Under the pieces are notes generated by a model, which did not search any database, was not told the origin of the DNA, and worked only from the letters and a program-made list of their open reading frames with translations. Of a stretch of 64,000 bases of DNA, positions 4,889-34,030 are shown piece after piece. A program made the position numbers and the translations under genes. The DNA comes from an uncultured Gammaproteobacteria bacterium. Lineage in GTDB: Bacteria > Patescibacteriota > Microgenomatia > UBA12405 > JAHJSD01. Position 1 is the stretch's first letter, and every line of letters begins with the position of its first letter. The stretch covers positions 163,063-227,062 of the forward strand of contig CAZCGQ010000001.1 in the NCBI GenBank assembly GCA_964498425.1, read 5' to 3'.

Positions 4889-6148
4889 TTAGGTTTTTCT
4901 GCTTTTGAGCTTTTTGTGAAGATATTTCTGGGCGAAGCGGTGGGCTTCGTCACGAGCAACCTGAAGAAGCTTCAGGGCCGGAGAGTTTTTGGGCAAGTTC
5001 ACCCGATTAACTCCACCAATCTTATTTCCTTGAATTTTTGGAATAACCAATGTTTCTTTCTCCTTCGCCAAACCGATTAAACCCGTTTCACCCAAAATAT
5101 CGAATTGGCGTAGAACCGGGACAACCGCTCTTAACTGCGGTCTACCACCATCAATGAGAATTAACTGTGGGTATAACCACTCTTCGTGGTTCAAACGTCT
5201 GGTCAGTACCTCCGCTAAAGCCCTCGGATCGTCCTGTCCCTGCCGGCGAATCTTAAACATCCGATACTGACTGGAATCAATTTCACCATTCATTAATACG
5301 GTCATTGCCCCAACAATTAACTTGTCTGACAAGTTAGCAATATCATAGGCCTCAATCCGCTGAAGGTAAAACGGATCAACACCTTGATTGGCAATCAACA
5401 ACCTCTTTATTTTTTTTAATCCGGTATCAATTTTCAGCTCCTGGCCAGACAGGCGTTTAGAAGAATAAATAATTCTCTCCAGCTGGTCAATTTGATTTTT
5501 AATTTCCTGGGCCTGCTCAAACTGCTGATTATCAGCATATTCTTCCATTTCACTTTTCAAGCGATTGAGCAATTCTTCGGATTGGCCTGAAAAAAACAAT
5601 ATAATATTGTTAATGTTTTCCATATACTCTTCTTTGCTGACAATTCCCGGTCCCGGACAAAGGTCAATTTGGTAATAAAGGCAGGGTCTCTTTCTGCCCG
5701 GAGAGCAGGAACAGTAAGGAAATATCCGTCTTATCCACCGTAATAACTGCTTTAAAGCCGCTGAGGAAGGAAACGGACCGGCCCAAAATTTTAAGCTCTC
5801 TAGCTCCGGCCGACGAACAACCTTAATTCTAGGATATTCATCATCAGTAATTCCCAAATACAAATGCCGCTTGCCGTCCTTTAACTGGACATTGTATTTC
5901 GGCTTATACTGCTTGATCAATTTTGCCTCTACTACTGTTGCCATTGCTTCTGAAGTAGTTTCATTCCAATCAACACTCTCTGCTTTGGCAAGCATTTTTT
6001 CGGTTTTAATATCAACCGGATCACGGAAATACTGCCTTATTCTCGAACGCAAACTCGTTGCTTTGCCGACATACAGAACTTTGTTGTTTTTGTCCTTAAA
6101 CCAGTACACACCTGGTTTCCGCGGTACCTTCTTAAAATCAACTTTCAT
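4889..6148 (-). CDS. uvrC: Excinuclease ABC subunit C (short form lacking the C-terminal (HhH)2 domain)
   Basis: Has the GIY-YIG N-terminus (PGVYWFKDKNNKVLYVGKATSLRSRIRQYF), a UVR domain (QQFEQAQEIKNQIDQLE) and the endonuclease-domain motif ARDEAHRFA near the C-terminus. It is 419 aa versus ~600 typical. Confidence 0.85.
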   Translation of the reverse strand: MKVDFKKVPRKPGVYWFKDKNNKVLYVGKATSLRSRIRQYFRDPVDIKTEKMLAKAESVDWNETTSEAMATVVEAKLIKQYKPKYNVQLKDGKRHLYLGITDDEYPRIKVVRRPELESLKFWAGPFPSSAALKQLLRWIRRIFPYCSCSPGRKRPCLYYQIDLCPGPGIVSKEEYMENINNIILFFSGQSEELLNRLKSEMEEYADNQQFEQAQEIKNQIDQLERIIYSSKRLSGQELKIDTGLKKIKRLLIANQGVDPFYLQRIEAYDIANLSDKLIVGAMTVLMNGEIDSSQYRMFKIRRQGQDDPRALAEVLTRRLNHEEWLYPQLILIDGGRPQLRAVVPVLRQFDILGETGLIGLAKEKETLVIPKIQGNKIGGVNRVNLPKNSPALKLLQVARDEAHRFAQKYLHKKLKSRKT

Positions 6149-6164
6149 AGTTATAGTCTCATTT

Positions 6165-6192
6165 GTAGGGACAATCCTAGGATTGTCCCTAC
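6165..6192. repeat. 28-bp perfect palindrome GTAGGGACAATCCTAGGATTGTCCCTAC (copy 1)
   Basis: Read directly. Lies in the 50-nt uvrA stop / uvrC start spacer. Confidence 0.8.
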
Positions 6193-6198
6193 CATTAA

Positions 6199-8847
6199 TT
6201 ACAAATATTTTCTGGTGATTGAGGCGTCGATTGTTTTCAATTCCTCTGGTGTACCTTCGGCAATGAGATGACCACCAGCATTGCCGCCAGTTGGACCAAG
6301 TTCAACTACCCAATCTGCCTGCCGAATAATCTCCAGACTGTGTTCGATAATAATAATAGTATGCCCGCGGTCAATCAGCTTTCGCAAAACCGCCAAAAGT
6401 TTCTCCAAATCAGCGTAATGCAAGCCAGTCGTCGGCTCATCAAGCAAATAAACTGTCGGCTTATTTTTTTTCTTAACCAACTCCCTGGCTAATTTTAATC
6501 TCTGTGCCTCCCCGCCAGACAAGGTCGGAGAAATCTGGCCCAGCTCCAGATAACCCAAGCCAATGTTCGATAAAAGATCCAACTTGGACTTTATCTTCGG
6601 GTGTTTGGCAAAAAAATCAACTGCTTCATCAACTGTCATTTCTAAAACCTCGGCAATATTCTTTCCACGATAACCAATTTCCAAAACCGCTTCTTTATAC
6701 CTTGCCCCATCGCACTCTTCACATTTAACTGAAACATCCGGCAAAAACTCCATTTTTATTTCAATTTCACCCCTGCCCTCGCAATGGGGACACCGACCCT
6801 TTTTAACGTTAAATGAAAAATGGCTTTTGGTGAACCCCTTTAACTTTGATTCTTTGGTTTCGGCGAATAAATCACGAATATCATCAAAAACACCAATGTA
6901 AGTTGCCGGGTTGCTTCTTGAAGACCGACCAATCGGACTTTGATCAACAATCAATGCTCGCTCAATTTTTTCAAACCCCTTTAATGAACTATGCTCCCCA
7001 GCCTGTTGATGAAAATGGCCATAAATCTCACGTTTTAGAGCCGGGTATAGGGTGTCTTTAACCAAAGTTGATTTGCCAGAACCAGAAACCCCAGCAACCA
7101 CCGACATCGCTCCTAAAGGAAACTTGGCAGAAATATTTTTTAAATTATGCTCCTGACAGCCTAATATTTCCAACCACTGGGTATCCTCACTAATACTTTT
7201 TTTGCCCAAATCCTTAACTTTTTTTCTTCCACTTAAATAACCACCGGTCAAAGATTTCTCATTCTCCATTAATTCTTCCGGCGCTTGAGCGGCAACAATA
7301 TTTCCACCCTTCTTGCCCGCTCCTGGACCAAATTCAATTAAGTAATCGGCCTGGTTGAGAACATTTTCGTCATGCTCAACTAATATAACTGTATTGCCCA
7401 AATCCCTCAATCGTTCCAAAGTTTTAGTTAACCTGCCGATGTCGTGGGGATGTAAACCGATTGTCGGCTCATCAAGAATATAAAGGACGCCGGTTAAGCC
7501 CGTCCCAAGTTGACTGGCCAAATTAATTCGCTGGGCTTCACCGGCTGACAAAGTAGTTGCCTCACGAGACAAGGTCAGATAATCAACCCCAACAGCAATT
7601 AAAAAATCAACCCGTGATTCCAACTCAGAAATAATCAATTCCGCTACCTTTTGGTCAAATATAGAATCCAAATTTCTTAAACCCCTAATCCAATCCAGCA
7701 ACTCCTGTAAAGACATTTCCGATACCTGAGCGATATTCAAATCATCAACAACAACCGACCGAGGTTCATCCTTAAGTCTTGTCCCCTGACATTCCGAACA
7801 AGTTTGTTTAACCATATATTTTTCTAGATGCCGACGAAGGGAATCATAACGGGTTGTCAGATACTGCCGCTTAATTTTTCTTGCCTTGGCCGGTGAAACC
7901 TGACTTAAATCCGGCTTTAAAATCATTCCTAATCCACGACATTTGGGGCAGGCCCCAAGAGGAGAATTAAATGAAAATAATCGCGGCCGAAGCGGCGGCA
8001 AAGAAATTTGGCAGTTGGGACAAGAAAACTGCCGTGAATAGAGAGTGTCTTCAACCTTCTTTGGTCGGTCCGGAAAATCAAAACCGGCATCATTAATCTG
8101 GGATAAAACTGCTAATCCATCAGATAACTCGAAAGCAATTTCGATATCATCAACCAAACGCTGACTAAAGTCCTTTTCATTATCCGGCACGCTGGTTAAA
8201 TTAATTTTGTCAACAACAACACTAATGTTATGGCGATTAGTCCGGATTAAAACGATATCTTCGTCAAGGTAATAAAACTGGTTGTCAATTCGCACCTGCT
8301 GAAAACCTTTTTTAGCCAAGTTTGTGAATAATTGACTAAATTCCCCCTTTTTGCTCCGAACAACCGGCGATAGAATTAAAAATCTGGCCTTACCTTGAGT
8401 GGCAATTAAATTCTGAACCTCGGTAAAGATCTGATCAGCAACCTGCTGAGGGGTCTGACGCTCAATCGGCTGACCGCAAGACGGACATTGGGGCGTGCCA
8501 ATCTTTGCATAAAGCAAACGTAAATAATCATAAACCTCGGTTGCCGTACCAACAGTTGACCGCGGGTTATGTGATAACCCTTTTTGGTCAATGGCAATTG
8601 CTGGCGATAAACCATCGATTTGGTCAACATCCGGCTTAGAAGCAACTCCTAAGAATTGCCGGGCGTAGGTGTTTAAGGACTGGACATACCGACGTTGACC
8701 CTCAGCAAAGAGGGTATCCATGGCTAAACTAGATTTTCCGGAACCAGAAACACCGCAAAAAACAATCAATTTGTTTTTGGGAATCTCCAAATCAACGTTT
8801 TTTAGGTTGTGTTCCCGTGCTCCTTTGATTTTAATTTTATCTTCCAT
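6199..8847 (-). CDS. uvrA: Excinuclease ABC subunit A
   Basis: Two ABC ATPase modules (GVSGSGKSSLA and GVSGSGKSTLV), ABC signature motifs and Zn-finger cysteines. Length is 882 aa. Confidence 0.93.
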   Translation of the reverse strand: MEDKIKIKGAREHNLKNVDLEIPKNKLIVFCGVSGSGKSSLAMDTLFAEGQRRYVQSLNTYARQFLGVASKPDVDQIDGLSPAIAIDQKGLSHNPRSTVGTATEVYDYLRLLYAKIGTPQCPSCGQPIERQTPQQVADQIFTEVQNLIATQGKARFLILSPVVRSKKGEFSQLFTNLAKKGFQQVRIDNQFYYLDEDIVLIRTNRHNISVVVDKINLTSVPDNEKDFSQRLVDDIEIAFELSDGLAVLSQINDAGFDFPDRPKKVEDTLYSRQFSCPNCQISLPPLRPRLFSFNSPLGACPKCRGLGMILKPDLSQVSPAKARKIKRQYLTTRYDSLRRHLEKYMVKQTCSECQGTRLKDEPRSVVVDDLNIAQVSEMSLQELLDWIRGLRNLDSIFDQKVAELIISELESRVDFLIAVGVDYLTLSREATTLSAGEAQRINLASQLGTGLTGVLYILDEPTIGLHPHDIGRLTKTLERLRDLGNTVILVEHDENVLNQADYLIEFGPGAGKKGGNIVAAQAPEELMENEKSLTGGYLSGRKKVKDLGKKSISEDTQWLEILGCQEHNLKNISAKFPLGAMSVVAGVSGSGKSTLVKDTLYPALKREIYGHFHQQAGEHSSLKGFEKIERALIVDQSPIGRSSRSNPATYIGVFDDIRDLFAETKESKLKGFTKSHFSFNVKKGRCPHCEGRGEIEIKMEFLPDVSVKCEECDGARYKEAVLEIGYRGKNIAEVLEMTVDEAVDFFAKHPKIKSKLDLLSNIGLGYLELGQISPTLSGGEAQRLKLARELVKKKNKPTVYLLDEPTTGLHYADLEKLLAVLRKLIDRGHTIIIIEHSLEIIRQADWVVELGPTGGNAGGHLIAEGTPEELKTIDASITRKYL

Positions 8848-8941: not shown

Positions 8942-10945
8942 TTAATGCAGCCAGGCTTTTAACTTGTCGATTTCGTCCCGAACGCGAGCAGCTTTTTCAA
9001 ACTCCAACTCCCCTGCCAATTTATTCATTCTCCGGGTTAATTCAGAAATTTTTTCTTTGATTTCTTTTGGAGTTAAGGCTTCCGGATCAATCTTTAAGGG
9101 CTGATCATCACGCTGACTCCAACCAGGAACAATTTCTCCTCTAATCGGCTTTTTGATCGTTTCTGGAGTAATACCATGTTTCTGATTATATTCCAACTGA
9201 ACTTTCCGCCGACGATTAACCTCAGAGATTGCCTCTTTCATTGCATCGGTACGTTTGTCTGCATATAAAATTACCTCTCCGGCAGAATTTCTCGCCGCCC
9301 GACCCATTGTCTGGATTAAAGAAATCTTTGACCGCAAAAAACCGGAAATGTCAGCATCCAGAATTGCTACCAAAGAAACTTCCGGTAAATCCAAACCCTC
9401 TCTCAATAAATTTACTCCAACCAAAACATCATATTCACCTTTACGCAAATCTGTTAAAATTTGGCTTCGTTCAAGAGAATCCACATCAGAATGAATGTAC
9501 TGAACTTTGATGTCAGCGTCTCCAGTATGCTCCGGGTCATTTAAATATCGGGACAAATCCTCGGCTAACCGCTTAGTTAATGTTGTCACTAGCACTCGCT
9601 CTTTCTTCTTTTTGCGATTAATAATTTCTGCTATCACGTCCTCTACTTGTTTAGCTGTCGGCCGGATATCAATTTCCGGCTCAACCAATCCTGTCGGCCG
9701 GATTAACTGCTCAACAACCCGTCCATCCGCCTTATCCTTTTCCCAATCCCGAGGCGTAGCAGACGAATAGATAACCTGACTGGCCCGAGCAATAAATTCA
9801 TCAAATTTCAACGGCCGATTATCCAAAGCCGAGGGCAGTCGAAAGCCAAAATCAATCAAAGTCTGCTTTCGAGACTGATCACCACGGTACATGCCACCAA
9901 TCTGAGGAACAGTAATGTGTGATTCATCAATAACAATTAAAAAGTCGTCGCCAAAGGCATGTTGATAGTAATCTAGTAGGGTGTGCGGCGGGTCACCAGG
10001 TTCACGGTTATCAAAATAACGGGAATAGTTTTCAATACCCTTAACATACCCCATTTCCTGAATCATCTCCATGTCGTATTCAACCCGCTGTTCTAACCGC
10101 TGAGCCTCGACCAAATTTCCTTCTTCCTTTAGCTCGTTAACCCGGTCAATTAAATCCCGCCGGATTTCTTTAACCGCCGGCTGAATAATATCCGGGTCGG
10201 TTAAGTAATGTTTAGCCGGATAAACTACGGCATTATCAACCTTTTTTTTCTCACCGGAAAAAACACCCCGAGTCGCCAGCTCGCTAATCCGGTTATCGTT
10301 ATATTTAATTTCTAGAATTTCCTCGGAATAAGCGGGAAATATCTGAACTAGATTACCTCGTTGTCGAAATTGGCCGCGAGCCAACTCCCAACGGTTAGCC
10401 ATATAATGCATATCAACTAACTTTTCTTTCAACTTCTGCGGTGAAATTTGCTTGCCCGGCTCTAGTTCAAGGACATATCGTTTATATTCCAGCGGTGAAC
10501 CAAGATTGTAAATACAAGACACCGAGGCAACAATAATTACGTCATCGCGAGACAAAATCTGACTGGTTGCTTTTAACCGCAACTTATCAATTTCCTCATT
10601 AACTTCTGTTTCTTTAGCAATATAGGTATCAGTTTGCGGCAGATATGATTCCGGCAAATAGTAGTCATAATAAGAAATAAAAAAACCAACGGCATTATTA
10701 GGAAAAAAGTCCCGGAATTCCTGATAAAGCTGAGCGGCCAAGGTTTTGTTGTGAGAAATCACCAGGGTTGGTTTCTGGGTATTAGCAATGACATTAGCAA
10801 TCGTGAAAGTTTTACCACTTCCGGTTACCCCAAGTAAAACTTGATCTTTAATATCCTGATTAATTCCCTCTGTCAATTTTTCAATTGCCTGAGGCTGGTC
10901 ACCAGTCGGTTGAAAATCCGCCGTAAGTTCAAATTTCATCGCCAT
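8942..10945 (-). CDS. uvrB: Excinuclease ABC subunit B
   Basis: Helicase motifs (LLGVTGSGKTFT, DESH), a beta-hairpin region and a C-terminal UVR domain (KAARVRDEIDKLK). Confidence 0.93.
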   Translation of the reverse strand: MAMKFELTADFQPTGDQPQAIEKLTEGINQDIKDQVLLGVTGSGKTFTIANVIANTQKPTLVISHNKTLAAQLYQEFRDFFPNNAVGFFISYYDYYLPESYLPQTDTYIAKETEVNEEIDKLRLKATSQILSRDDVIIVASVSCIYNLGSPLEYKRYVLELEPGKQISPQKLKEKLVDMHYMANRWELARGQFRQRGNLVQIFPAYSEEILEIKYNDNRISELATRGVFSGEKKKVDNAVVYPAKHYLTDPDIIQPAVKEIRRDLIDRVNELKEEGNLVEAQRLEQRVEYDMEMIQEMGYVKGIENYSRYFDNREPGDPPHTLLDYYQHAFGDDFLIVIDESHITVPQIGGMYRGDQSRKQTLIDFGFRLPSALDNRPLKFDEFIARASQVIYSSATPRDWEKDKADGRVVEQLIRPTGLVEPEIDIRPTAKQVEDVIAEIINRKKKKERVLVTTLTKRLAEDLSRYLNDPEHTGDADIKVQYIHSDVDSLERSQILTDLRKGEYDVLVGVNLLREGLDLPEVSLVAILDADISGFLRSKISLIQTMGRAARNSAGEVILYADKRTDAMKEAISEVNRRRKVQLEYNQKHGITPETIKKPIRGEIVPGWSQRDDQPLKIDPEALTPKEIKEKISELTRRMNKLAGELEFEKAARVRDEIDKLKAWLH

Positions 10946-17531: not shown

Positions 17532-20477
17532 GTGTTAGAATTGGCCATGGCAAGAATTGATGAGATTGTCTTGAACAAGGAGCAAAAAGAAGCCGTTCAC
17601 TATCAAAAGGGCCCATTGTTAATAATAGCTGGTGCCGGAACAGGAAAAACAACCGTCATCACCGAAAGAATCAAATGGTTGGTTACTGAAAAGGGGCTAA
17701 ATCCTTCACAAATTCTCGCCCTCACCTTTACTGAAAAAGCGGCTAAAGAAATGGAAGAGAGGGTCGACCAGGCCATGCCCCTTGGCTATGCTCAATATTG
17801 GATTTCCACCTTTCATTCCTTTGGCGACCGGATTCTTCGGGATAATGCCCATCATATCGGCCTTAATCCAAACTTTAAATTAATGAGTGAAGCAGAATCT
17901 GTTCTATTTCTTCGACAAAACATGTATGAACTAGACTTGAATTATTTCCGGCCTGTTTCTAATCCGAACAAATTTTTAGGCGGAATTATTTCCCACTTTT
18001 CCCGACTTCACGACGAAGACATCTCGCCAAAGCAGTATTTGGAATATGCTAAAAAGAAATCCAAAAAAGCTAATAGCGAAGAAACGGAATTAGACGCGGC
18101 CAAAACAATGGAGCTGGCCAAAACCTACAAGAAATATCAATCGATTAAACATAAAGCTGGCTTTTTCGATTTTGCTGATTTAATAACCTCCACTTTAAAA
18201 CTTTTTCGTCAACGGCCAAATGTTCTTAAGGAATACAAATCCAAATTCAAGTTTGTTCTTGTCGATGAGTTTCAAGACACAAACATCGCTCAATATGAAT
18301 TAATCAAACTTCTTGCCCCACCAGACGAAAAACCAAATTTAACCGTCACTGGAGATGACAGCCAATCCATCTACAAATTTCGGGGGGCAGCCATCTCCAA
18401 TATTTTGTCATTCAGAGAAGATTACCACGACCCAAAAACCGTTGTCTTGACCAACAACTATCGATCCTCTCAAACTATTCTTGATCACGCCTACCAGTTA
18501 ATTCAAAAGAATAATCCTGATACCTTGGAATCTAAACTGGGTATTTCCAAAAACTTATCCAGCACTAGAAAAAATATCAACCAAGAAATCGGTTTATTTT
18601 TCCCCAAAACCGGCGAGGACGAAGCGGAATCAATTGTTCGAGAAATCGAACAATTGATCGCTAAAGGCTCAGGGCCTAAAGCTCAAGGCTATGAATACAA
18701 AGATGTGGCGATACTTGTTCGGGCCAACAACCATTCTCAGCCCTTTACCCGCGCCTTAGTTCGTCATGGTATTCCGTACCAATTTTTAGGACCAGGTAAA
18801 CTTTTTCGTCAACCAGAAATTAAAAATCTAATTGCTTATTTAAAAATCCTCATTAACCCGGCTGATGATATTGCCTTTTTTAAAGTTGCTTCAATGCCAA
18901 TTTTTAACATTTCCGCTCGAGATTTAGCCTTTCTGAGAAGCAAAGCCAAAAAGGAAAATTTATCGCTTTTAGAAGCGGCTGAAAATGAAAAAATGGAAAA
19001 TGAAAAAATGGAAAAATTTGTGGAGATGTACCATCGACATCTTGATCTTCTTTCTCAAGAAACTGGCGGACAAATTCTCTATTATTTCGTTGAAGACAGC
19101 GGCTGGCTAAAGTCACTCCTAAAACCTTCAACGGAAACCGAACACCAGCAGTCACTAAATTTAGCTAAATTTTTTGATCGGGTTAAAAATTTTGAAACCG
19201 ACAACGAGGAGGCAACTGCCTTTCATCTCCTTGATTGGATAACTCTTCGCCTAGAAATGGGCGAAAGCCCAACCGCCTCAGAAACGGATTGGACAGAAAA
19301 TAATGCCGTTAACATTTTAACTGTTCACTCCGCTAAGGGCTTAGAATTTCCAGTCGTTTTCATGGTAAATTTGGTTAACCGGCGGTTCCCAACCACCAAT
19401 CGTCGCGAAAAAATTCCCCTTCCCCAGCCCTTAATTAAAGAACACCTCCCGGAAGGCGACCCACATGAACAAGAAGAACGACGCCTTTTCTATGTCGGGA
19501 TGACCCGGGCAATGGATCAACTATATTTCAGTGGAGCAAAATATTACGGCGACGCTAAACGCCAAAAAAAACTATCCCCCTTTGTTTATGAATCCCTTGG
19601 AAAAGAAACAGCAGAAAAATTAATTTCTTCCTCCGAAACTCAAGCCTCTAGCGAGCAATCCCCATTATTTTCTTGGAAAAAACCGGAAGAAAAAAGCCAA
19701 CCGCCAAAATTGAGCCAAACCATTAACTACTTATCTTATTCCCAAATGGATTCTTTTGGAATATGTCCACTTCAGTATAAGTACAAATACCTTCTTCGCC
19801 TACCTTCACCGCCATCTCCAGCCCAAACAATAGGGAGTGTTATCCATCAAACTCTCAAGGAATTTTACCAACGGCAGATGACAGCAAAAAAGAAATTTGA
19901 CCAAAATAAAATGGCGTCAATTTTAATGGAAAATTGGTCCTCAAACGGTTTTGACAATAAAACCCAAGAGAAAGAAGCAAAAGAAGAAGCACTAGAAATG
20001 TTAACTAACTATTACCAACAAGAGTTAACTGACGAACCTCTACCAAATGTTGCCGCTTTAGAAAAGCCATTCAGCTTAAAAATCAGCCAGCAACTAAAAA
20101 TTGGTGGAATAATTGACCGAGCCGACATTTTGGATAACGGAGAAGTAGAAATCATCGATTATAAAACCGGCAGTCGGATCCCAAATCAAAAGGCTGTCGA
20201 TAATAATGACCAGCTGACACTTTACGCCCTAGCCGTTAGTTTAGCTGAAAATTTTCCTTGGCACCGGCCAATCGATAAGATTAAACTGAGTCTGTATTTT
20301 CTTAGAGAAGGAGTTAAGCTTTCCAGCCGACGGACAAAAGAAGAAGCCGAAGAAATAAAACAAAAAATTATTGATACCGCTAAAGAAATTGAACAAAGCA
20401 ATTTCCCGCCTGATCCTGGCATACCCTTTCCTTGCAACTGGTGTGAGTATAAGCTCCTCTGCGACGCCTGGGAATAA
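17532..20477 (+). CDS. UvrD/PcrA-family helicase fused to a C-terminal PD-(D/E)XK (Cas4/AddB-like) nuclease domain with a 4-Cys Fe-S cluster
   Basis: Helicase motifs (AGAGTGKTT, the DEFQDT Walker B, and TVHSAKGLEFPVV). C-terminal motifs: CPLQYKYKYL, IDRADILDNGEVEIIDYKTG and CNWCEYKLLC. Confidence 0.8.
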   Translation: MLELAMARIDEIVLNKEQKEAVHYQKGPLLIIAGAGTGKTTVITERIKWLVTEKGLNPSQILALTFTEKAAKEMEERVDQAMPLGYAQYWISTFHSFGDRILRDNAHHIGLNPNFKLMSEAESVLFLRQNMYELDLNYFRPVSNPNKFLGGIISHFSRLHDEDISPKQYLEYAKKKSKKANSEETELDAAKTMELAKTYKKYQSIKHKAGFFDFADLITSTLKLFRQRPNVLKEYKSKFKFVLVDEFQDTNIAQYELIKLLAPPDEKPNLTVTGDDSQSIYKFRGAAISNILSFREDYHDPKTVVLTNNYRSSQTILDHAYQLIQKNNPDTLESKLGISKNLSSTRKNINQEIGLFFPKTGEDEAESIVREIEQLIAKGSGPKAQGYEYKDVAILVRANNHSQPFTRALVRHGIPYQFLGPGKLFRQPEIKNLIAYLKILINPADDIAFFKVASMPIFNISARDLAFLRSKAKKENLSLLEAAENEKMENEKMEKFVEMYHRHLDLLSQETGGQILYYFVEDSGWLKSLLKPSTETEHQQSLNLAKFFDRVKNFETDNEEATAFHLLDWITLRLEMGESPTASETDWTENNAVNILTVHSAKGLEFPVVFMVNLVNRRFPTTNRREKIPLPQPLIKEHLPEGDPHEQEERRLFYVGMTRAMDQLYFSGAKYYGDAKRQKKLSPFVYESLGKETAEKLISSSETQASSEQSPLFSWKKPEEKSQPPKLSQTINYLSYSQMDSFGICPLQYKYKYLLRLPSPPSPAQTIGSVIHQTLKEFYQRQMTAKKKFDQNKMASILMENWSSNGFDNKTQEKEAKEEALEMLTNYYQQELTDEPLPNVAALEKPFSLKISQQLKIGGIIDRADILDNGEVEIIDYKTGSRIPNQKAVDNNDQLTLYALAVSLAENFPWHRPIDKIKLSLYFLREGVKLSSRRTKEEAEEIKQKIIDTAKEIEQSNFPPDPGIPFPCNWCEYKLLCDAWE

Positions 20478-24338: not shown

Positions 24339-26264
24339 TTACCATTCTTCCAACCAATCGTCATCGTCCCAATCCCAATCATCTAAACCCTCCTTCATTT
24401 CTTCTCGAATTACCAAATGATTTGGAATGTTTTCTAAAAACCGGGAAGGCGAATTGTAATTAGTTTTACCAAAATACAACCTCTTAGCGGCGTAAGTAAG
24501 ATAGAGAGAAGATTTTGCCCGAGTCATCCCAACATAACACAAACGCCGTTCTTCCTCCAGTTCCTCTTTATCCATCATACTTCGTGAATGCGGCAGCAAA
24601 CCTTCTTCCATTCCGGCAATAAAAACTGCCTGAAATTCCAGCCCTTTACTAGAATGAAGCGTCATTAGTCTTACCGCCTGATCAGCTGTGTCCTTTTTTC
24701 TCTTTTCCTGGACAGAGTATTCCTGCTGAACTAAAGCAACACTTTCTAAAAAGTCCTTTAAATCTGGAAACTGCTGAGCAACCGAGGACAGTTCACGAAT
24801 ATTCTCTAAACGCCGATAATCATCCTTGTCTTCTTGATTGTATTTGTCTAAATATCGACTGGCCGGCAAAATCCGATTAAGAACCTCTTCACTGGTATAT
24901 TGATTTGACCTATTTTCTTCAATAAATTCCCTAACCCGCCGCATACGCCTTACCCCCATATTTTTCTCAATCCTCTCCCAAGAAATTACATCATCAGGGT
25001 TATACCACACTCTGATTAAAGCTAGAACATCCTTGATTTCAGCTCGCTGATAAAATTTAACCCCTCCATACAAAATATAAGGCAAGCCGTGATGAATGAA
25101 AGCGTCTTCAAGTGTTCGGGATTGAGCATTGGTTCGATAAAGAACAGCAATTTCTTTGGGATCAATCTTATCCTCATTTATTAATTTTTTTATCTCTTCG
25201 ACAATGAAATTTGCCTCACCAGATTCGTCCTTGGCCTGATGAATAACTATCTTTTTACCAGATTTTTTTTCGGTGTATAGATTTAAAACCGGATGAAGTT
25301 CATTATAGGAAATAATTTTGTTGGCAGCATCAAGAATGGTTTGCGTTGAGCGATAATTCTGTTCTAAGTTTATTACAGTTGTTTCCGAAAAGTCCTTTTT
25401 GAGAGCAGACAAGTTACGATAGTCAGCTCCACGCCATGAATATATTGCTTGTGCGGCGTCACCAACCACCGTCAAGCTCTGATGCTTTCCTGCTAATAAC
25501 TTGGTCATAACGTATTGAGACTTATTCGTATCTTGATATTCATCAATAAGAATATGCTGAAATTTGCTCTGATATTTTCCTAATACTTCAGAATTTTCTT
25601 TCAACATTTTTACGGTTAAGTAAAGTAAATCTCCAAAATCCAAAGCATTAGCCTGACTCAATTTATCCTGATAATTTTTATAAACCAAACCAACATTTTC
25701 TTGCCATTGGTCACTGGCTGAATCTAGAAACACCTTCCAATCAATCAAATCATTCTTGGCGGAGTTTATTATTGAATTTAAAGCTTTAGGTCGATATTTT
25801 TTTTCGGGCAAATTTAGTTTCTTGATAATATTTTTCAATAAAGACAATTGGTCTTTTTGATCATAAATAACGAAGTTAGCTGACAACCCTACTCTTCTCC
25901 CTTCTCGTCGCAAAATGTATACCCCAAAAGAATGAAAGGTACCAGCGAAAAGATTAGGGGAACCAGACACCTCCGAGGTGGAATTATTTTCTCCTCGGAC
26001 GGTGTTTGCTAATAACTTTCCCAACCGCTCTTTCATTTCCCCGGCAGCTTTGTTAGTAAAGGTTAACAAGAGCAAACCACCATTTTTTACCCTACCATTA
26101 GCTAAAAGCCAAGCCACTCGGTGGGTTAAAACTCGGGTCTTCCCACTTCCCGCCCCGGCTAAAACTAAAAGCGGCCCTTTGCCGTCAAAAGTTACTGCCT
26201 GCTGTTGATCCTCGTTTAAATCTCTTAATAATTCCTCCATAGCAACATCAATTGTAGCAAACAT
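24339..26264 (-). CDS. pcrA: ATP-dependent DNA helicase UvrD/PcrA
   Basis: LNEDQQQAV...LAGAGSGKTRVLTHR, DEYQDTN and VGMTRAK motifs. Acidic W/D-rich tail. Confidence 0.88.
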   Translation of the reverse strand: MFATIDVAMEELLRDLNEDQQQAVTFDGKGPLLVLAGAGSGKTRVLTHRVAWLLANGRVKNGGLLLLTFTNKAAGEMKERLGKLLANTVRGENNSTSEVSGSPNLFAGTFHSFGVYILRREGRRVGLSANFVIYDQKDQLSLLKNIIKKLNLPEKKYRPKALNSIINSAKNDLIDWKVFLDSASDQWQENVGLVYKNYQDKLSQANALDFGDLLYLTVKMLKENSEVLGKYQSKFQHILIDEYQDTNKSQYVMTKLLAGKHQSLTVVGDAAQAIYSWRGADYRNLSALKKDFSETTVINLEQNYRSTQTILDAANKIISYNELHPVLNLYTEKKSGKKIVIHQAKDESGEANFIVEEIKKLINEDKIDPKEIAVLYRTNAQSRTLEDAFIHHGLPYILYGGVKFYQRAEIKDVLALIRVWYNPDDVISWERIEKNMGVRRMRRVREFIEENRSNQYTSEEVLNRILPASRYLDKYNQEDKDDYRRLENIRELSSVAQQFPDLKDFLESVALVQQEYSVQEKRKKDTADQAVRLMTLHSSKGLEFQAVFIAGMEEGLLPHSRSMMDKEELEEERRLCYVGMTRAKSSLYLTYAAKRLYFGKTNYNSPSRFLENIPNHLVIREEMKEGLDDWDWDDDDWLEEW

Positions 26265-26293: not shown

Positions 26294-26321
26294 GTAGGGA
26301 CAATCCTAGGATTGTCCCTAC
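26294..26321. repeat. 28-bp perfect palindrome GTAGGGACAATCCTAGGATTGTCCCTAC (copy 2)
   Basis: Identical to copy 1. Lies between the YYY-GT stop and the pcrA start. Confidence 0.8.
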
Positions 26322-26337
26322 TGATGAAAAATATTTT

Positions 26338-28467
26338 CTACAAGTCTAATTTATAGATTGTCGTGTCTCCGGAAGTAAAAATAGGTTGTCCCCAATTATA
26401 AAATCTTTCTTCGTCCAATTCCCCGTACTTTTCCTCCTCTAGCGGACCAACAAAAACATATTCGACTTCATATTTCTTGAGTAATTTTTCGGCTTCATCT
26501 AAATTTCCTTGGTAAATTGTTTTTACTTCTTCTAAACGCCTCCCCGGCCGGTCATAACCACCACGCCACAGCCACTCATGAACCGTCCAACCCTCAATCG
26601 TTGGTAAACCAGTCATTGCGGAAATCTGATTAAACATGGTGTAACTTTCACCGACCGCCTCAACAATAACTGGCTGTCCCTGAACATTCTTATTCAACCA
26701 CAAAACCGCCTCATAGTTATCCGGGTACTGTTTTTCCAGAAAATTCATCCCATATAACCCCTGATATTTCTTCAGACCGCCGTAATAACCTTTGATTGAA
26801 AAATATGGGTAAATCATATGGCTGGCAAAGCCAGCTGTAAATAGTAATAAGTAAACAGTAATAAGTAATTTATTTTTCAAAAATCCCTTAATCCGAAAGA
26901 AAATATAGCCGGCGGCAATCGAATACATCATAAATGACTGGTAGACCAATTTAAACATGGTATTTGACCGGTGATGTTCGTGAATATAAATATCTTTAAC
27001 ATAAATAATTTCAGGAATAATAATCAGAACTGTTGACCACAAAGTCATCGCCAAAACAAAAAGATCAGAAATTGTCATTCCGAGCAATGTCGAGGAATCC
27101 CTTTTGGGATTTTTAGTAACGAACAACCAAAAGCTAACTGCAGTAAACCAGAAAAACCCCCAGAGGATTAATAGTTGCCACCAAAGAGAATTAGCATCAA
27201 CAAACCGAATCCCTTCAGTCATTGGATTAAAACTAATTGCAAAGGGCATAGCAAACAAAATTGCCAAAATTAAGGTAACCACCCCAACGACGAAAGTATT
27301 TTTTAATCCCTCGACTAACTTTTTCCAATCCAGCTTGTCTATTGGTTCAAGATTGATTAAGAATATGAACAAGGCAAAAACTATTCCATAAATTGGAAAA
27401 TTCCAGGAATTGGTCATATACATAGCCGCTAATAGAAAGGCTATTAGCGGAATTTCCAATTTCCAATTTCCCCCGGCCTCGCCTCGGGCTTGCCGAGGGC
27501 GGGCAATTTTCAATACTAAACCAAAGCTTAACAAAACAGCTAAAAATAATAATACTGTCGGGATGTCATTTACATGACCGTGAAGATCGGAAACAACAAA
27601 TGAATAAGATGGAAATTCATGAATGGTTGCGTCCTTTGGGTTGTCCGGTTCATAACCAATAAACCTGGTTGCATCCGGATACCAATACTTTTTAGCCCCT
27701 CGCTTAAGAACATAGGTTATCGTATGCAAATTTCCGCCCAAGGTAAGAAGCAAGGCTGAAACCAATCCTCCAATAATAATTTTTCTTTTAAATTCCTTTG
27801 GAGCATGACTGAAACTTTTAATTTTTTTCTTAACAAGATAAATTAAATTTGAAGCCAGCGAAAAGGTGCCGCTAAAAGCCTGAGCAAAAATCGTTCCAAG
27901 CATTAAATTATAAGTTACAGCCGACCTCAATCCAGAAATTTTGGTTAAGACAGCAGCAATTAAATGACCAAAATAATAATAATTTATGGATTCGCCGGAA
28001 AACCACATATCAACGGGTGGGAACCATTTAGTTCGAAGAATTGAATTGACAAAGCCGAAGTCCATGAATTTTTCTAACCCTTCAATACGCGGAGCAAACC
28101 CTCTTATTAATGACCAAAAGGTCAACATGACTAAGAAAATTCCCTCCTGCCAAGCAAAGGTTTGCCAATTTTCCTCAAAAATATTAGTTATTTCTTTTTT
28201 ATTTTTTCCTTGACCAAGCCAATAGAGGTTTACCGCTAAAAGGATAATGATAATAAGAAAAAGTGTTTCACGATAAAAGGGAAAAATTTGGGCCCGGCCA
28301 AAAATAAAGGCAAGATATGAAATTACTAAAAAGGAAACTGTTTTAGCAAAAATCCAACCTTTATCCCAAAATTTTCCAAAAATTTTGAAAACCAAAGGAA
28401 GAGCCAGTGCTCCCAAAATTACAGTTATCAGCCACCAATAAAAGATTGTAAAAACATCGGTAATCAT
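26338..28467 (-). CDS. Large polytopic membrane protein, YYY/DUF2298-family putative GT-C glycosyltransferase
   Basis: Over 12 TM segments. The FMDFGFVNSIL...FPPVDMWFSGESINYYYFGH motif matches the chlor_Arch_YYY (DUF2298) family. Large C-terminal extracytoplasmic domain. Confidence 0.6.
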   Translation of the reverse strand: MITDVFTIFYWWLITVILGALALPLVFKIFGKFWDKGWIFAKTVSFLVISYLAFIFGRAQIFPFYRETLFLIIIILLAVNLYWLGQGKNKKEITNIFEENWQTFAWQEGIFLVMLTFWSLIRGFAPRIEGLEKFMDFGFVNSILRTKWFPPVDMWFSGESINYYYFGHLIAAVLTKISGLRSAVTYNLMLGTIFAQAFSGTFSLASNLIYLVKKKIKSFSHAPKEFKRKIIIGGLVSALLLTLGGNLHTITYVLKRGAKKYWYPDATRFIGYEPDNPKDATIHEFPSYSFVVSDLHGHVNDIPTVLLFLAVLLSFGLVLKIARPRQARGEAGGNWKLEIPLIAFLLAAMYMTNSWNFPIYGIVFALFIFLINLEPIDKLDWKKLVEGLKNTFVVGVVTLILAILFAMPFAISFNPMTEGIRFVDANSLWWQLLILWGFFWFTAVSFWLFVTKNPKRDSSTLLGMTISDLFVLAMTLWSTVLIIIPEIIYVKDIYIHEHHRSNTMFKLVYQSFMMYSIAAGYIFFRIKGFLKNKLLITVYLLLFTAGFASHMIYPYFSIKGYYGGLKKYQGLYGMNFLEKQYPDNYEAVLWLNKNVQGQPVIVEAVGESYTMFNQISAMTGLPTIEGWTVHEWLWRGGYDRPGRRLEEVKTIYQGNLDEAEKLLKKYEVEYVFVGPLEEEKYGELDEERFYNWGQPIFTSGDTTIYKLDL

Positions 28468-33229: not shown

Positions 33230-33370
33230 AGCTTAATTTTAGCAAAATCTTAAGCACTAATTCCTAAACTCTAAATAATACCCAATTATCAAAGCCCAAA
33301 TATTTAAACTAATCCGGACATTTTTATTTTGAATTTGTTTAGGATTTAGATATTAGAGATTAGAATTTGA

Positions 33371-33394
33371 TTCTAGAATATCGATATTCTAGAA
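33371..33394. promoter_or_regulatory. 24-bp perfect palindrome TTCTAGAATATCGATATTCTAGAA
   Basis: Read directly from the sequence. Ends 6 nt before the UDG ATG at 33401. Confidence 0.5.
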
Positions 33395-33400
33395 TGTCTC

Positions 33401-34030
33401 ATGACCGTTCAAGAAGAAATCGACAGTCTGGCTGAAAAAATCAGTAAGTGTCAAAAATGTCCTCTCTATAAGTCCGCCACTCAGGCGGTTCCCGGTGGGC
33501 CTAATCCTGACACAGATATTGTCTTTATTGGCGAAGCTCCCGGTTACTGGGAAGATCAACGCGGTGTTCCCTTCTGCGGTCGTTCCGGCGACTTGCTCAA
33601 CAAATTACTTCAGAGAATTAATCTCGATCGAAAGGATGTTTTTATTTGTAATATTTTAAAACACCGGCCGCCAAATAATCGTGACCCAAGCCCGGAAGAA
33701 ATTGAAACTTGCACTCCCTGGTTAAAACAACAGCTGTTAATTATCGAACCCAAAATTGTCATCACCCTTGGGCGATTTGCCATGAATTATTTTATCCCCG
33801 ATGTCTACATTTCTAAAGTTCACGGTCAGCCTAAACAAATCCTTTGGCAAGATTTGGATTTACTCCTTTATCCCCTTTATCATCCAGCGGCTGGGTTAAG
33901 AAACGGGAGCGTTAAGGAGGATTTAGTTGAAGATTTTTTGAAAATTCCCAAGATTATCAGTGATGAGAGTGACATGGATATGAAGATAAAAGAGGAGAAA
34001 AAAGACCCCGAACAGGAAAGTTTATTTTAG
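33401..34030 (+). CDS. Uracil-DNA glycosylase, family 4 (Fe-S UDG)
   Basis: CQKCPLYKSATQAVPGGPNPDTDIVFIGEAPGYWEDQRGVPFCGRSG, HPAA and the conserved Cys residues. Confidence 0.85.
   Translation: MTVQEEIDSLAEKISKCQKCPLYKSATQAVPGGPNPDTDIVFIGEAPGYWEDQRGVPFCGRSGDLLNKLLQRINLDRKDVFICNILKHRPPNNRDPSPEEIETCTPWLKQQLLIIEPKIVITLGRFAMNYFIPDVYISKVHGQPKQILWQDLDLLLYPLYHPAAGLRNGSVKEDLVEDFLKIPKIISDESDMDMKIKEEKKDPEQESLF

Follow-up and report, generated by a model that had tools for sequence, protein, structure and literature searches.

Why does one and the same 28-bp palindrome occur twice in a single stretch of bacterial DNA, once in front of uvrC and once in front of pcrA, and is it a control site of these repair genes or a repeat of another kind? 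The stretch analysed here (64 kb, hereafter the window) had been described in an earlier note as holding a 28-bp perfect palindrome in two copies, GC-richer than its surroundings, each lying between a minus-strand stop and the next minus-strand start, at the uvrA-uvrC junction and at the junction of a gene named 'YYY-GT' with pcrA. This description was accurate in all its parts. GTAGGGACAATCCTAGGATTGTCCCTAC was found at exactly two sites (Table 1); it is a perfect palindrome of 28 bp with arms of 14 nt and no spacer, its G+C content is 50% compared with about 40% locally, and the genes on either side of each copy are co-directional, all on the minus strand, 'YYY-GT' being a gene for a DUF2298 membrane protein. 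On the basis of the evidence given below, we consider it very probable that both palindromes are copies of a GTAG-tagged double-foot REP, a non-autonomous element whose partner is a RAYT (TnpA_REP) of subclass 2.4.

Table 1. Positions of the palindromes and of the neighbouring features in the window
Feature	Position	Strand	Remarks
uvrC, downstream of copy 1	4889..6148	-	ATG 16 nt past the REP
Mini-ORF, 14 codons	6151..6195	-	ATG GTA GGG ... CTA TAA (MVGTILGLSLQMRL, then stop); read from the sequence
REP copy 1	6165..6192	no strand	uvrA-uvrC spacer; site empty in the closest relatives (L077-L079)
uvrA, upstream of copy 1	6199..8847	-	Pfam UvrA_inter and ABC_tran; TAA stop 6 nt from the REP
uvrB	8942-10945	-	first gene of the cluster; no palindrome copy
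pcrA/uvrD helicase, downstream of copy 2	24339..26264	-	Pfam UvrD-helicase and UvrD_C; first ATG 29 nt from the REP
TTTGCTACAAT, extended -10-like box	26251..26261	-	between the REP and the pcrA start; from the junction alignment
REP copy 2	26294..26321	no strand	DUF2298-pcrA spacer; identical to copy 1
DUF2298 membrane protein, upstream of copy 2	26338..28467	-	Pfam DUF2298, E 6e-101; TAG stop 16 nt from the REP

No third site with up to three mismatches to GTAGGGACAATCCTAGGATTGTCCCTAC was present in the window, and the chance expectation was 0.00 (100 dinucleotide-preserving shuffles). Searches of the window for the half-site GTAGGGACAATCC with at most two mismatches and for other GT[AG]GGG...CCC[CT]AC palindromes added no sites. 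The repeat comprises exactly 28 bp, and the sequences on either side of copy 1 are unrelated to those of copy 2 in both relative orientations; AAATATTTTCT does occur near both, at differing distances (at copy 1 it is part of the uvrA coding region, at copy 2 it falls in the spacer), which we read as chance in AT-rich DNA. Each copy begins with a 5' GTAG foot and ends with a 3' CTAC foot. The stem has 12 bp, with GGG/CCC immediately after GTA providing three consecutive G-C pairs at its base, and is closed by a CTAG loop, which makes a stable stem-loop within the range of 20-40 nt. The calculated folding energy of the single-stranded DNA was -10.9 kcal/mol (z -5.6) and that of the RNA hairpin in its context -21.1 kcal/mol. 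At the gathering thresholds of Rfam, three tRNAs were the only matches in the window and the palindromes had none. Two of the three reading frames of the 28-mer are open (frame 1, VGTILGLSL; frame 3, RDNPRIVPT), whereas frame 2 contains a TAG, and the same readings are obtained on both strands because the sequence is palindromic.

The distribution of the 28-mer outside the window was analysed in two scans. A scan of one genome per species with the pattern GGGACAATCC-N(0-6)-GGATTGTCCC gave 75 stretches, in which nearly all matches with a 2-nt TA centre were the complete 28-mer, including GTA and TAC. Matches with loops of 3-6 nt (GGGACAATCC-loop-GGATTGTCCC) had extended stems and T runs and came from unrelated taxa; they were rejected as the same element and set aside as ordinary terminators sharing the stem by chance. 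A metagenome scan with the exact 28-mer provided 35 further stretches, on contigs of 37-63% G+C. Together, the two scans yielded 67 distinct exact copies. At least seven phylum labels were attached to the MAGs and metagenome contigs that carry them, and the record titles include Patescibacteria (Uhrbacteria, Peribacteria, Gracilibacteria and other), Gammaproteobacteria, Leptospirales, Calditrichota, Ignavibacteria, Zixiibacteriota and Fibrobacteres. Several MAGs had 3-7 copies per assembly (approximately 6-7 in CAZDJQ01, JAZDEQ01 and CAYVCQ01). At least 17 exact copies were found over ~548 kb of contigs of Ga0154362, that is, about one per 32 kb, the same density as in the window, where 2 copies lie in 64 kb (window alone counted). 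A search of viral contigs with the 22-nt core gave 0 matches and thus no sign of phage carriage.

Most copies lay outside genes, close to stop codons and in spacers that separate co-directional or convergent genes, and the copies in the window, 6 and 16 nt past stops, are placed in the same way. Among the 30 intergenic copies with genes on both sides, 17 were tandem, 10 convergent and 3 divergent. At the loci of other genomes many ORFs terminate at the REP's own TAG, and some copies are located within coding sequences. It appears that two open frames, a TAG in the third and strand symmetry together allow the element to survive in spacers, at stops and in tolerant protein loops. The 76 flanking proteins examined elsewhere belong to unrelated families (for example, PBP, epimerase, DnaE, FtsH, S7, GlnA, ThyA, PGK and a tRNA ligase), and include one UvrD-like and one HhH-GPD protein. 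The flanks of the 67 copies showed no clear target motif, T being merely favoured at -1, and no extension of the palindrome past 28 bp above chance.

That an identical string turns up in assemblies from unrelated studies might also suggest an assembly or sequencing artefact, such as an adapter or a chimera common to many metagenome assemblies, and a 2.4-kb Logan contig with identical pcrA does end inside the palindrome; this contig was the sole match of an exact look-up of the window PcrA, and the same look-up of the window UvrC gave no match. However, assemblers are expected to break contigs at short perfect repeats, and copies were found among uninterrupted genes on long contigs, some of them from long-read assemblies. 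Moreover, decayed and compensated variants, in-frame copies in conserved genes, orthologous copies in relatives and related 28-mers with other cores all exist, so that an artefactual origin can practically be dismissed.

The link between the REP and a transposase gene was observed in other genomes. Seventeen homologous Y1-transposase-like ORFs of 150-240 aa carry the 28-mer, or a variant with one or two substitutions, in frame just after the HUH motif; their motifs are MPNHxHGIL (HUH), RRHNLLSKTINAFKTTSSK, WQRSFYDHIIR and YIxxNP. In addition to these embedded cases, at one locus (L108) a gene of the family is flanked by two exact 28-mers and holds a copy with one mismatch inside. The window itself had no RAYT-like gene by tblastn. 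The consensus of 58 homologues reads MPNHFHGIL ... WQRSFYDHIIR ... YIxNNP, with H77, H79, W147, Y168 and N172 invariant. The top NCBIfam match was REP_Tyr_transpos (E 1e-15 to 1e-18), under the 80-bit equivalog cut-off of that model, and two of the three proteins scanned passed the 23-bit cut-off of Pfam Y1_Tnp. A profile of the family matched PDB 4ER8, the E. coli TnpA_REP (E 7e-5); a profile was needed here, as the RAYT sequence on its own had no match in the PDB. Some members bear the JGI label 'REP element-mobilizing transposase RayT'. With 50% identity representatives, the family comprised 22,589 sequences at E<=1e-10 and 6,092 at E<=1e-30.

Examination of the linker that follows the HUH motif extended this association to other REP sequences. 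In 74 of 120 homologues the linker contains the intact frame-1 or frame-3 peptide of some 28-nt GTAGGG...CCCTAC palindrome, compared with 3 matches outside the linker. The peptides included RDRSRPVPT and VGTGRDLSL, both from GTAGGGACAGGTCGCGACCTGTCCCTAC, as well as VGNGRDRSL, VGTGLDLSL and the type found in the window. The partner family of these other genomes combines NH[IFV]H, WQ and YIxNNP with a REP-holding insertion between HUH and Tyr. Since a copy lies in the transposase's own HUH-Tyr linker, a REP would travel with the enzyme gene. Other kinds of sequence were considered and rejected: CRISPR repeats, integron attC, dif/Xer sites, head-to-head IS terminal repeats (TA centre), telomere-resolvase sites and sequencing linkers do not fit a dispersed 28-bp unit that can be read in frame as part of proteins and that is embedded in a Y1 transposase gene.

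These features agree with a known but little-studied class. Subclass 2.4 (Quentin, Siguier, Chandler & Fichant 2018, BMC Genomics 19:475, PMC6006769), which corresponds to RAYT Group 4 of Bertels et al. 2017, has the signature HuH NH[IFV]H, WQ and YIxNNP, a median length of 194 aa, about 1.5 gene copies per genome and a patchy occurrence over many phyla. Its REPs are of two types, a 'long' one whose stem has three G-C pairs at the base and a 'double foot' one with 5' GT[AG]G and 3' C[TC]AC. In-frame REP insertions between HuH and Y are unique to this subclass and are held in a variable insertion between beta3 and alphaC (PMC6006769). Group 4 RAYTs were reported in 17 bacterial classes, and their flanking 16-mers occur about 14 times per replicon (Bertels et al. 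2017). The 28-mer resembles subclass 2.4 REPs in its GTAG/CTAC feet, its three bottom G-C pairs and, in other genomes, its low copy number in the tens, and its partner resembles subclass 2.4 enzymes in the REP carried in frame between HuH and Tyr, the NH[IFV]H/WQ/YIxNNP motifs and the patchy, multi-phylum distribution. On the other hand, the hosts of the 28-mer are mainly Patescibacteria and other uncultured phyla, not Cyanobacteria or Bacteroidetes; the sequence is letter-identical across phyla; and an embedded REP is the rule in the homologues sampled (74/120 intact). In searchable papers, the whole 28-mer, either half of it and the peptides that it encodes gave only chance matches to primers, and we found no biochemical study of this REP or of an enzyme of subclass 2.4. 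The 28-nt sequence is thus a new REP sequence of an element type that is already known.

The element can also be compared with other families of palindromic repeats. Like the 28-mer, the E. coli REP/BIME system (TnpA_REP, subclass 2.2, 4ER8) has GTAG hairpins that are dispersed, extragenic and mostly at the 3' ends of genes, with a Y1/HUH partner. In the family described here, the W, Q and R residues listed as contacting GTAG (PMC6006769) are conserved (W147, Q148 and R157, numbered as in alignment A2), and the distance from W to R is unchanged. E. coli REPs differ in being imperfect, with one foot, present in hundreds of copies, often paired as BIMEs/REPINs and species-specific; moreover, they flank the RAYT gene and do not lie inside it, and the similarity of the E. 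coli enzyme to the present family is remote. Rickettsia palindromic elements (RPE), which are 100-150 bp long and restricted to Rickettsia, have to our knowledge no dedicated transposase, whereas the element described here is 28 bp long and has a cognate RAYT. RPE are likewise palindromic repeats lying in frame within functional protein genes, as mentioned in the main text of Di Nocera, De Gregorio & Rocco (2013, BMC Genomics 14:522). According to the same text, GTAG REPs lie chiefly between co-directional and convergent ORFs, often supply a TAG stop and are sometimes in frame in genes, including uvrA and uvrB. The 28-mer shares with this superfamily, as described there, the GTAG tag, the co-directional or convergent location, the TAG stops and the intragenic in-frame copies; it differs in having two feet, the tag of the superfamily being at one end only, and a word search of that main text found no string beginning with GTAGGG.

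We then return to the question of whether the two copies control the genes behind them. The earlier note had proposed a terminator, an operator or a REP/MITE-like element, and had taken the position of both copies upstream of UvrC/PcrA genes as a hint of co-regulation. Under the operator reading, the palindrome would be bound by a dimeric factor (LexA-like or other), with uvrC and pcrA forming a DNA-damage regulon. Perfect dyad symmetry and the location of both window copies upstream of NER genes would favour such a site, and so would GCA_964470705.1, a relative with palindromes at the same two junctions and also at uvrB|uvrA. However, the palindromes of GCA_964470705.1 are other sequences (REP families B' and D), and no single regulator could read all of these different sequences. 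In the window, uvrB, the first gene of the cluster, lacks a copy, and operators do not typically come as a pair of sites that match letter for letter and are each fully symmetric.

The window stems from a Patescibacteria genome, and its relatives provided more direct information on these junctions. At uvrA|uvrC, the closest of them (L077-L079, UvrC identity 88-89%) read ...TATTTG TAA TT ATG GAC..., with a spacer of 2 nt and no palindrome; the spacer of L080/L081 (81%) is 66 nt long, again without a palindrome, and L082 (78%) has a different 28-nt double-foot REP, GTAGGGAACGGAGATCTGCGTTCCCTAC. At DUF2298|pcrA, L083 (88%) retains a decayed orthologue of the window REP, GTAGGGACAATCCTAGGATTGTCTTTAC, in which two substitutions in one arm produce two stem mismatches, whereas L084/L085 (PcrA 87%) have no REP. 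More distant relatives carry GTAGGGAACGCAGATCTGCGTTCCCTAC, whose TAG is the DUF2298 stop (L123, 75%), GTAAGGACAAGTCGCGACTTGTCCCTAC (L086, 72%), a 49-nt GTAG REP (L087, 72%) or a plain hairpin with a T run, which is a canonical terminator (L124, 72%). Four different REP families are thus found at this one junction among relatives, and REP insertions are polymorphic even among close relatives. These empty sites (the 2-nt uvrA-uvrC spacer of L077-L079, and pcrA of L084/L085) argue against an operator. The same is true of the identical 28-mers beside unrelated housekeeping genes elsewhere, of the copies inside coding sequences and of those between convergent genes (10/30 two-sided intergenic copies), where there is no promoter to operate.

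Inverted repeats such as CIRCE (HrcA) and LexA boxes lie upstream of stress and repair genes and are conserved over large distances. Such operators remain tied to the genes of their regulon and do not occur in spacers of convergent genes or in protein-coding loops; the 28-mer does the opposite, being neither conserved upstream of an orthologous regulon nor restricted to promoters. In addition, relatives with and without a REP alike have kept TTTGCTACAAT on the pcrA side of the REP position, ahead of the gene's start and ~10 nt before the ATG that they use. This box is likely to be a promoter element of pcrA that is independent of the REP, and translation of pcrA probably begins at the second ATG (26243), the start called in relatives. 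A promoter-like match formed by copy 2 and its flank (GGGACA-16-TACAAT) scored 9/12, no better than in shuffles. Taken together, we regard an operator as very unlikely. Of the three options in the earlier note, the REP was borne out, whereas the operator was not, nor was a canonical terminator, as neither copy is followed by a T run. The suggested co-regulation of UvrC and PcrA finds no support either, because the 28-mer occurs beside unrelated genes elsewhere and is absent from the closest relatives. The note had itself named two observations that would speak against it, and both were made: dozens of copies without gene-class bias (67 copies, 76 flanking proteins), and absence in close relatives (L077-L079 at uvrC, L084/L085 at pcrA).

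A second alternative is that the hairpin is kept mainly for a role in host RNA, as a terminator, an insulator or a 3' stabiliser of the uvrA and DUF2298 messages, with REPs as recruited raw material. In E. coli, REPs shield the mRNA that lies upstream of them against 3' exonucleases. The RNA hairpin of the 28-mer is strong (-21 kcal/mol), and copies stand a few nt past stop codons. DUF2298|pcrA has been occupied by four REP families in relatives and, at the same place, by the T-run terminator of L124. In addition, the REPs of an Uhrbacteria MAG are framed by A and T runs and resemble bidirectional terminators (L008, L029, L036), and post-transcriptional roles were proposed for GTAG REPs in the main text of Di Nocera 2013. 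However, an intrinsic terminator consists of a G+C-rich hairpin and then a T/U run, and the window copies have no T tract, being followed downstream by CAAATGAGAC and CAATAATCAA; without a T run after either copy, these are not canonical terminators, and no terminator-like site was called. It should be noted that the closest relatives manage without any hairpin, that the L083 copy is decaying, with its two stem mismatches, and that the ancestral uvrA|uvrC arrangement is a tight coupling with a 2-nt spacer, in which a terminator would be harmful. An RNA role also concerns a secondary use and is compatible with the identity of the element as a REP. We therefore consider it improbable that such a role is the main reason for its presence.

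Reading the palindromes as REPs, the two window copies would be insertions into operon spacers, and not conserved control sites of uvrC and pcrA. Window UvrC is the short Patescibacteria form of 419 aa, with GIY-YIG, UVR and RNase H-like domains and without the C-terminal HhH. In front of its gene, the REP would have opened a tight ancestral uvrA-uvrC junction to the present 50 nt. The mini-ORF MVGTILGLSLQMRL begins 3 nt past the uvrA stop, crosses the REP in open frame 1 and ends 2 nt short of the uvrC ATG. Its start codon may be the ancestral uvrC ATG, since relatives read TAA-TT-ATG at the same point, and its translation might maintain the translational coupling of uvrA and uvrC. At the pcrA junction, the REP lies upstream of the promoter-like box of the gene and, if anything, would serve the 3' end of the DUF2298 message. 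Where copies are transcribed, they could form a 3' hairpin on the uvrA and DUF2298 mRNAs.

Selection on the pairing itself could be observed. The fetched loci contained 18 distinct variants of the 28-mer, and across these 5 of the 12 stem pairs showed compensatory double changes, a value reached by none of 500 shuffles; examples are GTCGGG...CCCGAC, GTAGTG...CACTAC, GTATGG...CCATAC and ...ACAACCCTAGGGTTGT.... Thus, selection preserves base pairing or dyad symmetry, which is what a hairpin recognised in single-stranded form should show. The enzymology, and likewise any effect on RNA, is our inference. If the element behaves like the substrates of E. coli TnpA_REP and IS200/IS605, the 28-mer would fold into its 12-bp hairpin on single-stranded DNA, for example at the replication fork. 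The HUH/Tyr enzyme would then read the hairpin and the GTAG foot, and its cutting and rejoining of single strands would cause spacers to gain or lose copies. Indirect support for such mobilisation comes from the presence of copies in some close relatives and their absence in others.

REPs are usually lineage-specific, and a 28-mer that is letter-perfect across phyla and G+C contents is unusual for them. Such identity needs horizontal transfer together with strong constraint, and it agrees with a joint transfer of the REP and a transposase gene in which a copy is embedded. We also considered a more specific proposal, in which REPs have been repeatedly recruited, or exchanged in place, at these junctions for a function in repair transcripts, while the RAYT-embedded REP is a working part of a self-contained transposase-substrate unit. 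The recruited function could possibly lie at the 3' end of transcripts or in coupling, with the 14-codon ORF as a part of it, or there could be an interplay between single-strand repair and REP mobility. This proposal seems unlikely; if it were true, a unit of transposase plus substrate would explain why the 28-mer is identical across phyla and across genome G+C.

For genome annotation, these results remove a false lead, as there is no new damage-response operator in Patescibacteria here, and they offer practical rules. A 28-nt GTAGGG-N16-CCCTAC palindrome marks subclass 2.4 REPs, and RDNPRIVPT/VGTILGLSL, RDRSRPVPT/VGTGRDLSL or similar peptides in odd places of proteins indicate the same elements. 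Our data also extended the little-studied RAYT subclass 2.4 to candidate-phyla bacteria with tiny genomes, and documented both a REP sequence unchanged across phyla and the turnover of REP families at a single orthologous junction. Together, these provide testable entries to the spread of REPs and their use by the host.

Finally, when the window is taken together with ~100 kb of loci from relatives, every REP seen was at uvrB|uvrA, uvrA|uvrC or DUF2298|pcrA, and at least four families were involved; it should be noted that these loci were fetched around the repair genes, which makes them a biased sample for such a census of junctions. No bias towards repair-gene junctions was seen in other phyla. 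The repeated use of three junctions is not predicted by simple random insertion, and possible explanations are an old REP site with turnover of families, a hot spot for insertion of REPs into REPs, or selection for a hairpin.

Among related Patescibacteria, the same set of three junctions, namely uvrB|uvrA, uvrA|uvrC and DUF2298|pcrA, was found to hold GTAG REPs from at least four distinct families, and a canonical terminator was found in place of the REP in one relative (L124). In two other relatives (L123 and L087), the TAG stop codon of DUF2298 comes from the REP's own GTAG. Coordinates of these and the other features are shown in the table below.

Besides the homologues of the REP-associated tyrosine transposase (P0001-P0120 and P0361-P0500), unrelated proteins repeatedly contained REP-encoded peptides, including RDNPRIVPT and VGTILGLSL (the two open-frame readings of the 28-bp REP in the window), RDRSRPVPT, VGTGRDLSL and RGGSRTAPT. 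One carrier was a membrane protein, where VGTILGLSL falls within a hydrophobic stretch, and the others were a subtilisin-like protease, a MurG-like protein and a radical SAM enzyme similar to ELP3. Some of these peptides formed tandem half-unit arrays, for example, IVPTxG repeats. With regard to assembly, a Logan contig (L001, run SRR15425351) whose pcrA is identical to that of the window ends exactly inside the 28-bp palindrome (L001 1-27), which shows that short-read assemblies are broken by this perfect repeat.

The 28-bp palindrome had been reported as a possible operator; a 26-bp perfect palindrome in front of the uracil-DNA-glycosylase-like gene is a better candidate for such a role. It was present only once in the window, is overlapped by a third half-site and ends 5 nt before the ATG. 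In addition, the inverted repeats found within a 981-aa ORF of the window and the AddA-like gene of a relative are similar, and they may represent a conserved hairpin within coding sequence.

Two extended -10-like boxes, TTTGCTACAAT and TTTGCTAAAAT, lie only 7-10 nt upstream of start codons, suggesting that promoters are leaderless or near-leaderless in this lineage, and TTTGCTACAAT, located upstream of pcrA, was conserved across all relatives compared (L083-L087, L123 and L124). Thus, pcrA probably starts at the second ATG (26243) rather than at 26264. Finally, the UvrC of the window lacks the C-terminal helix-hairpin-helix domain, a short form common to many Patescibacteria, which NCBI often names 'GIY-YIG nuclease family protein'.

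Positions of the features in the window and in other loci
Feature	Locus	Position	Strand
Short UvrC, ~420 aa	window	4889-6148	minus
Inverted repeat, 13-nt arms, ATCAATTGTTCGA / TCGAACAATTGAT, inside 981-aa ORF (17532-20477)	window	18629-18658	
Extended -10-like box TTTGCTACAAT	window	26251-26261	minus
Extended -10-like box TTTGCTAAAAT	window	33236-33246	minus
26-bp perfect palindrome, half-sites ATTCTAGAATATC and GATATTCTAGAAT	window	33370-33395	
Third half-site	window	33386-33398	
Family-4 uracil-DNA-glycosylase-like gene, ATG at 33401	window	33401-34030	plus
GTAG REPs	L082	7249-7300 and 9964-9991	
GTAG REP	L083	2191-2218	
GTAG REP	L086	2629-2656	
GTAG REP	L087	2247-2295	
Inverted repeat GTTAGTTGTTCAA / TTGAACAACTAAC	L087	8357-8386	
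GTAG REP	L123	2718-2745	
Canonical terminator	L124	4308-4386	
REP-encoded peptides	L027	813-2258	
REP-encoded peptides	L060	1867-2811	
REP-encoded peptides	L011	5540-7369	
REP-encoded peptides	L100		
REP-encoded peptides	L110
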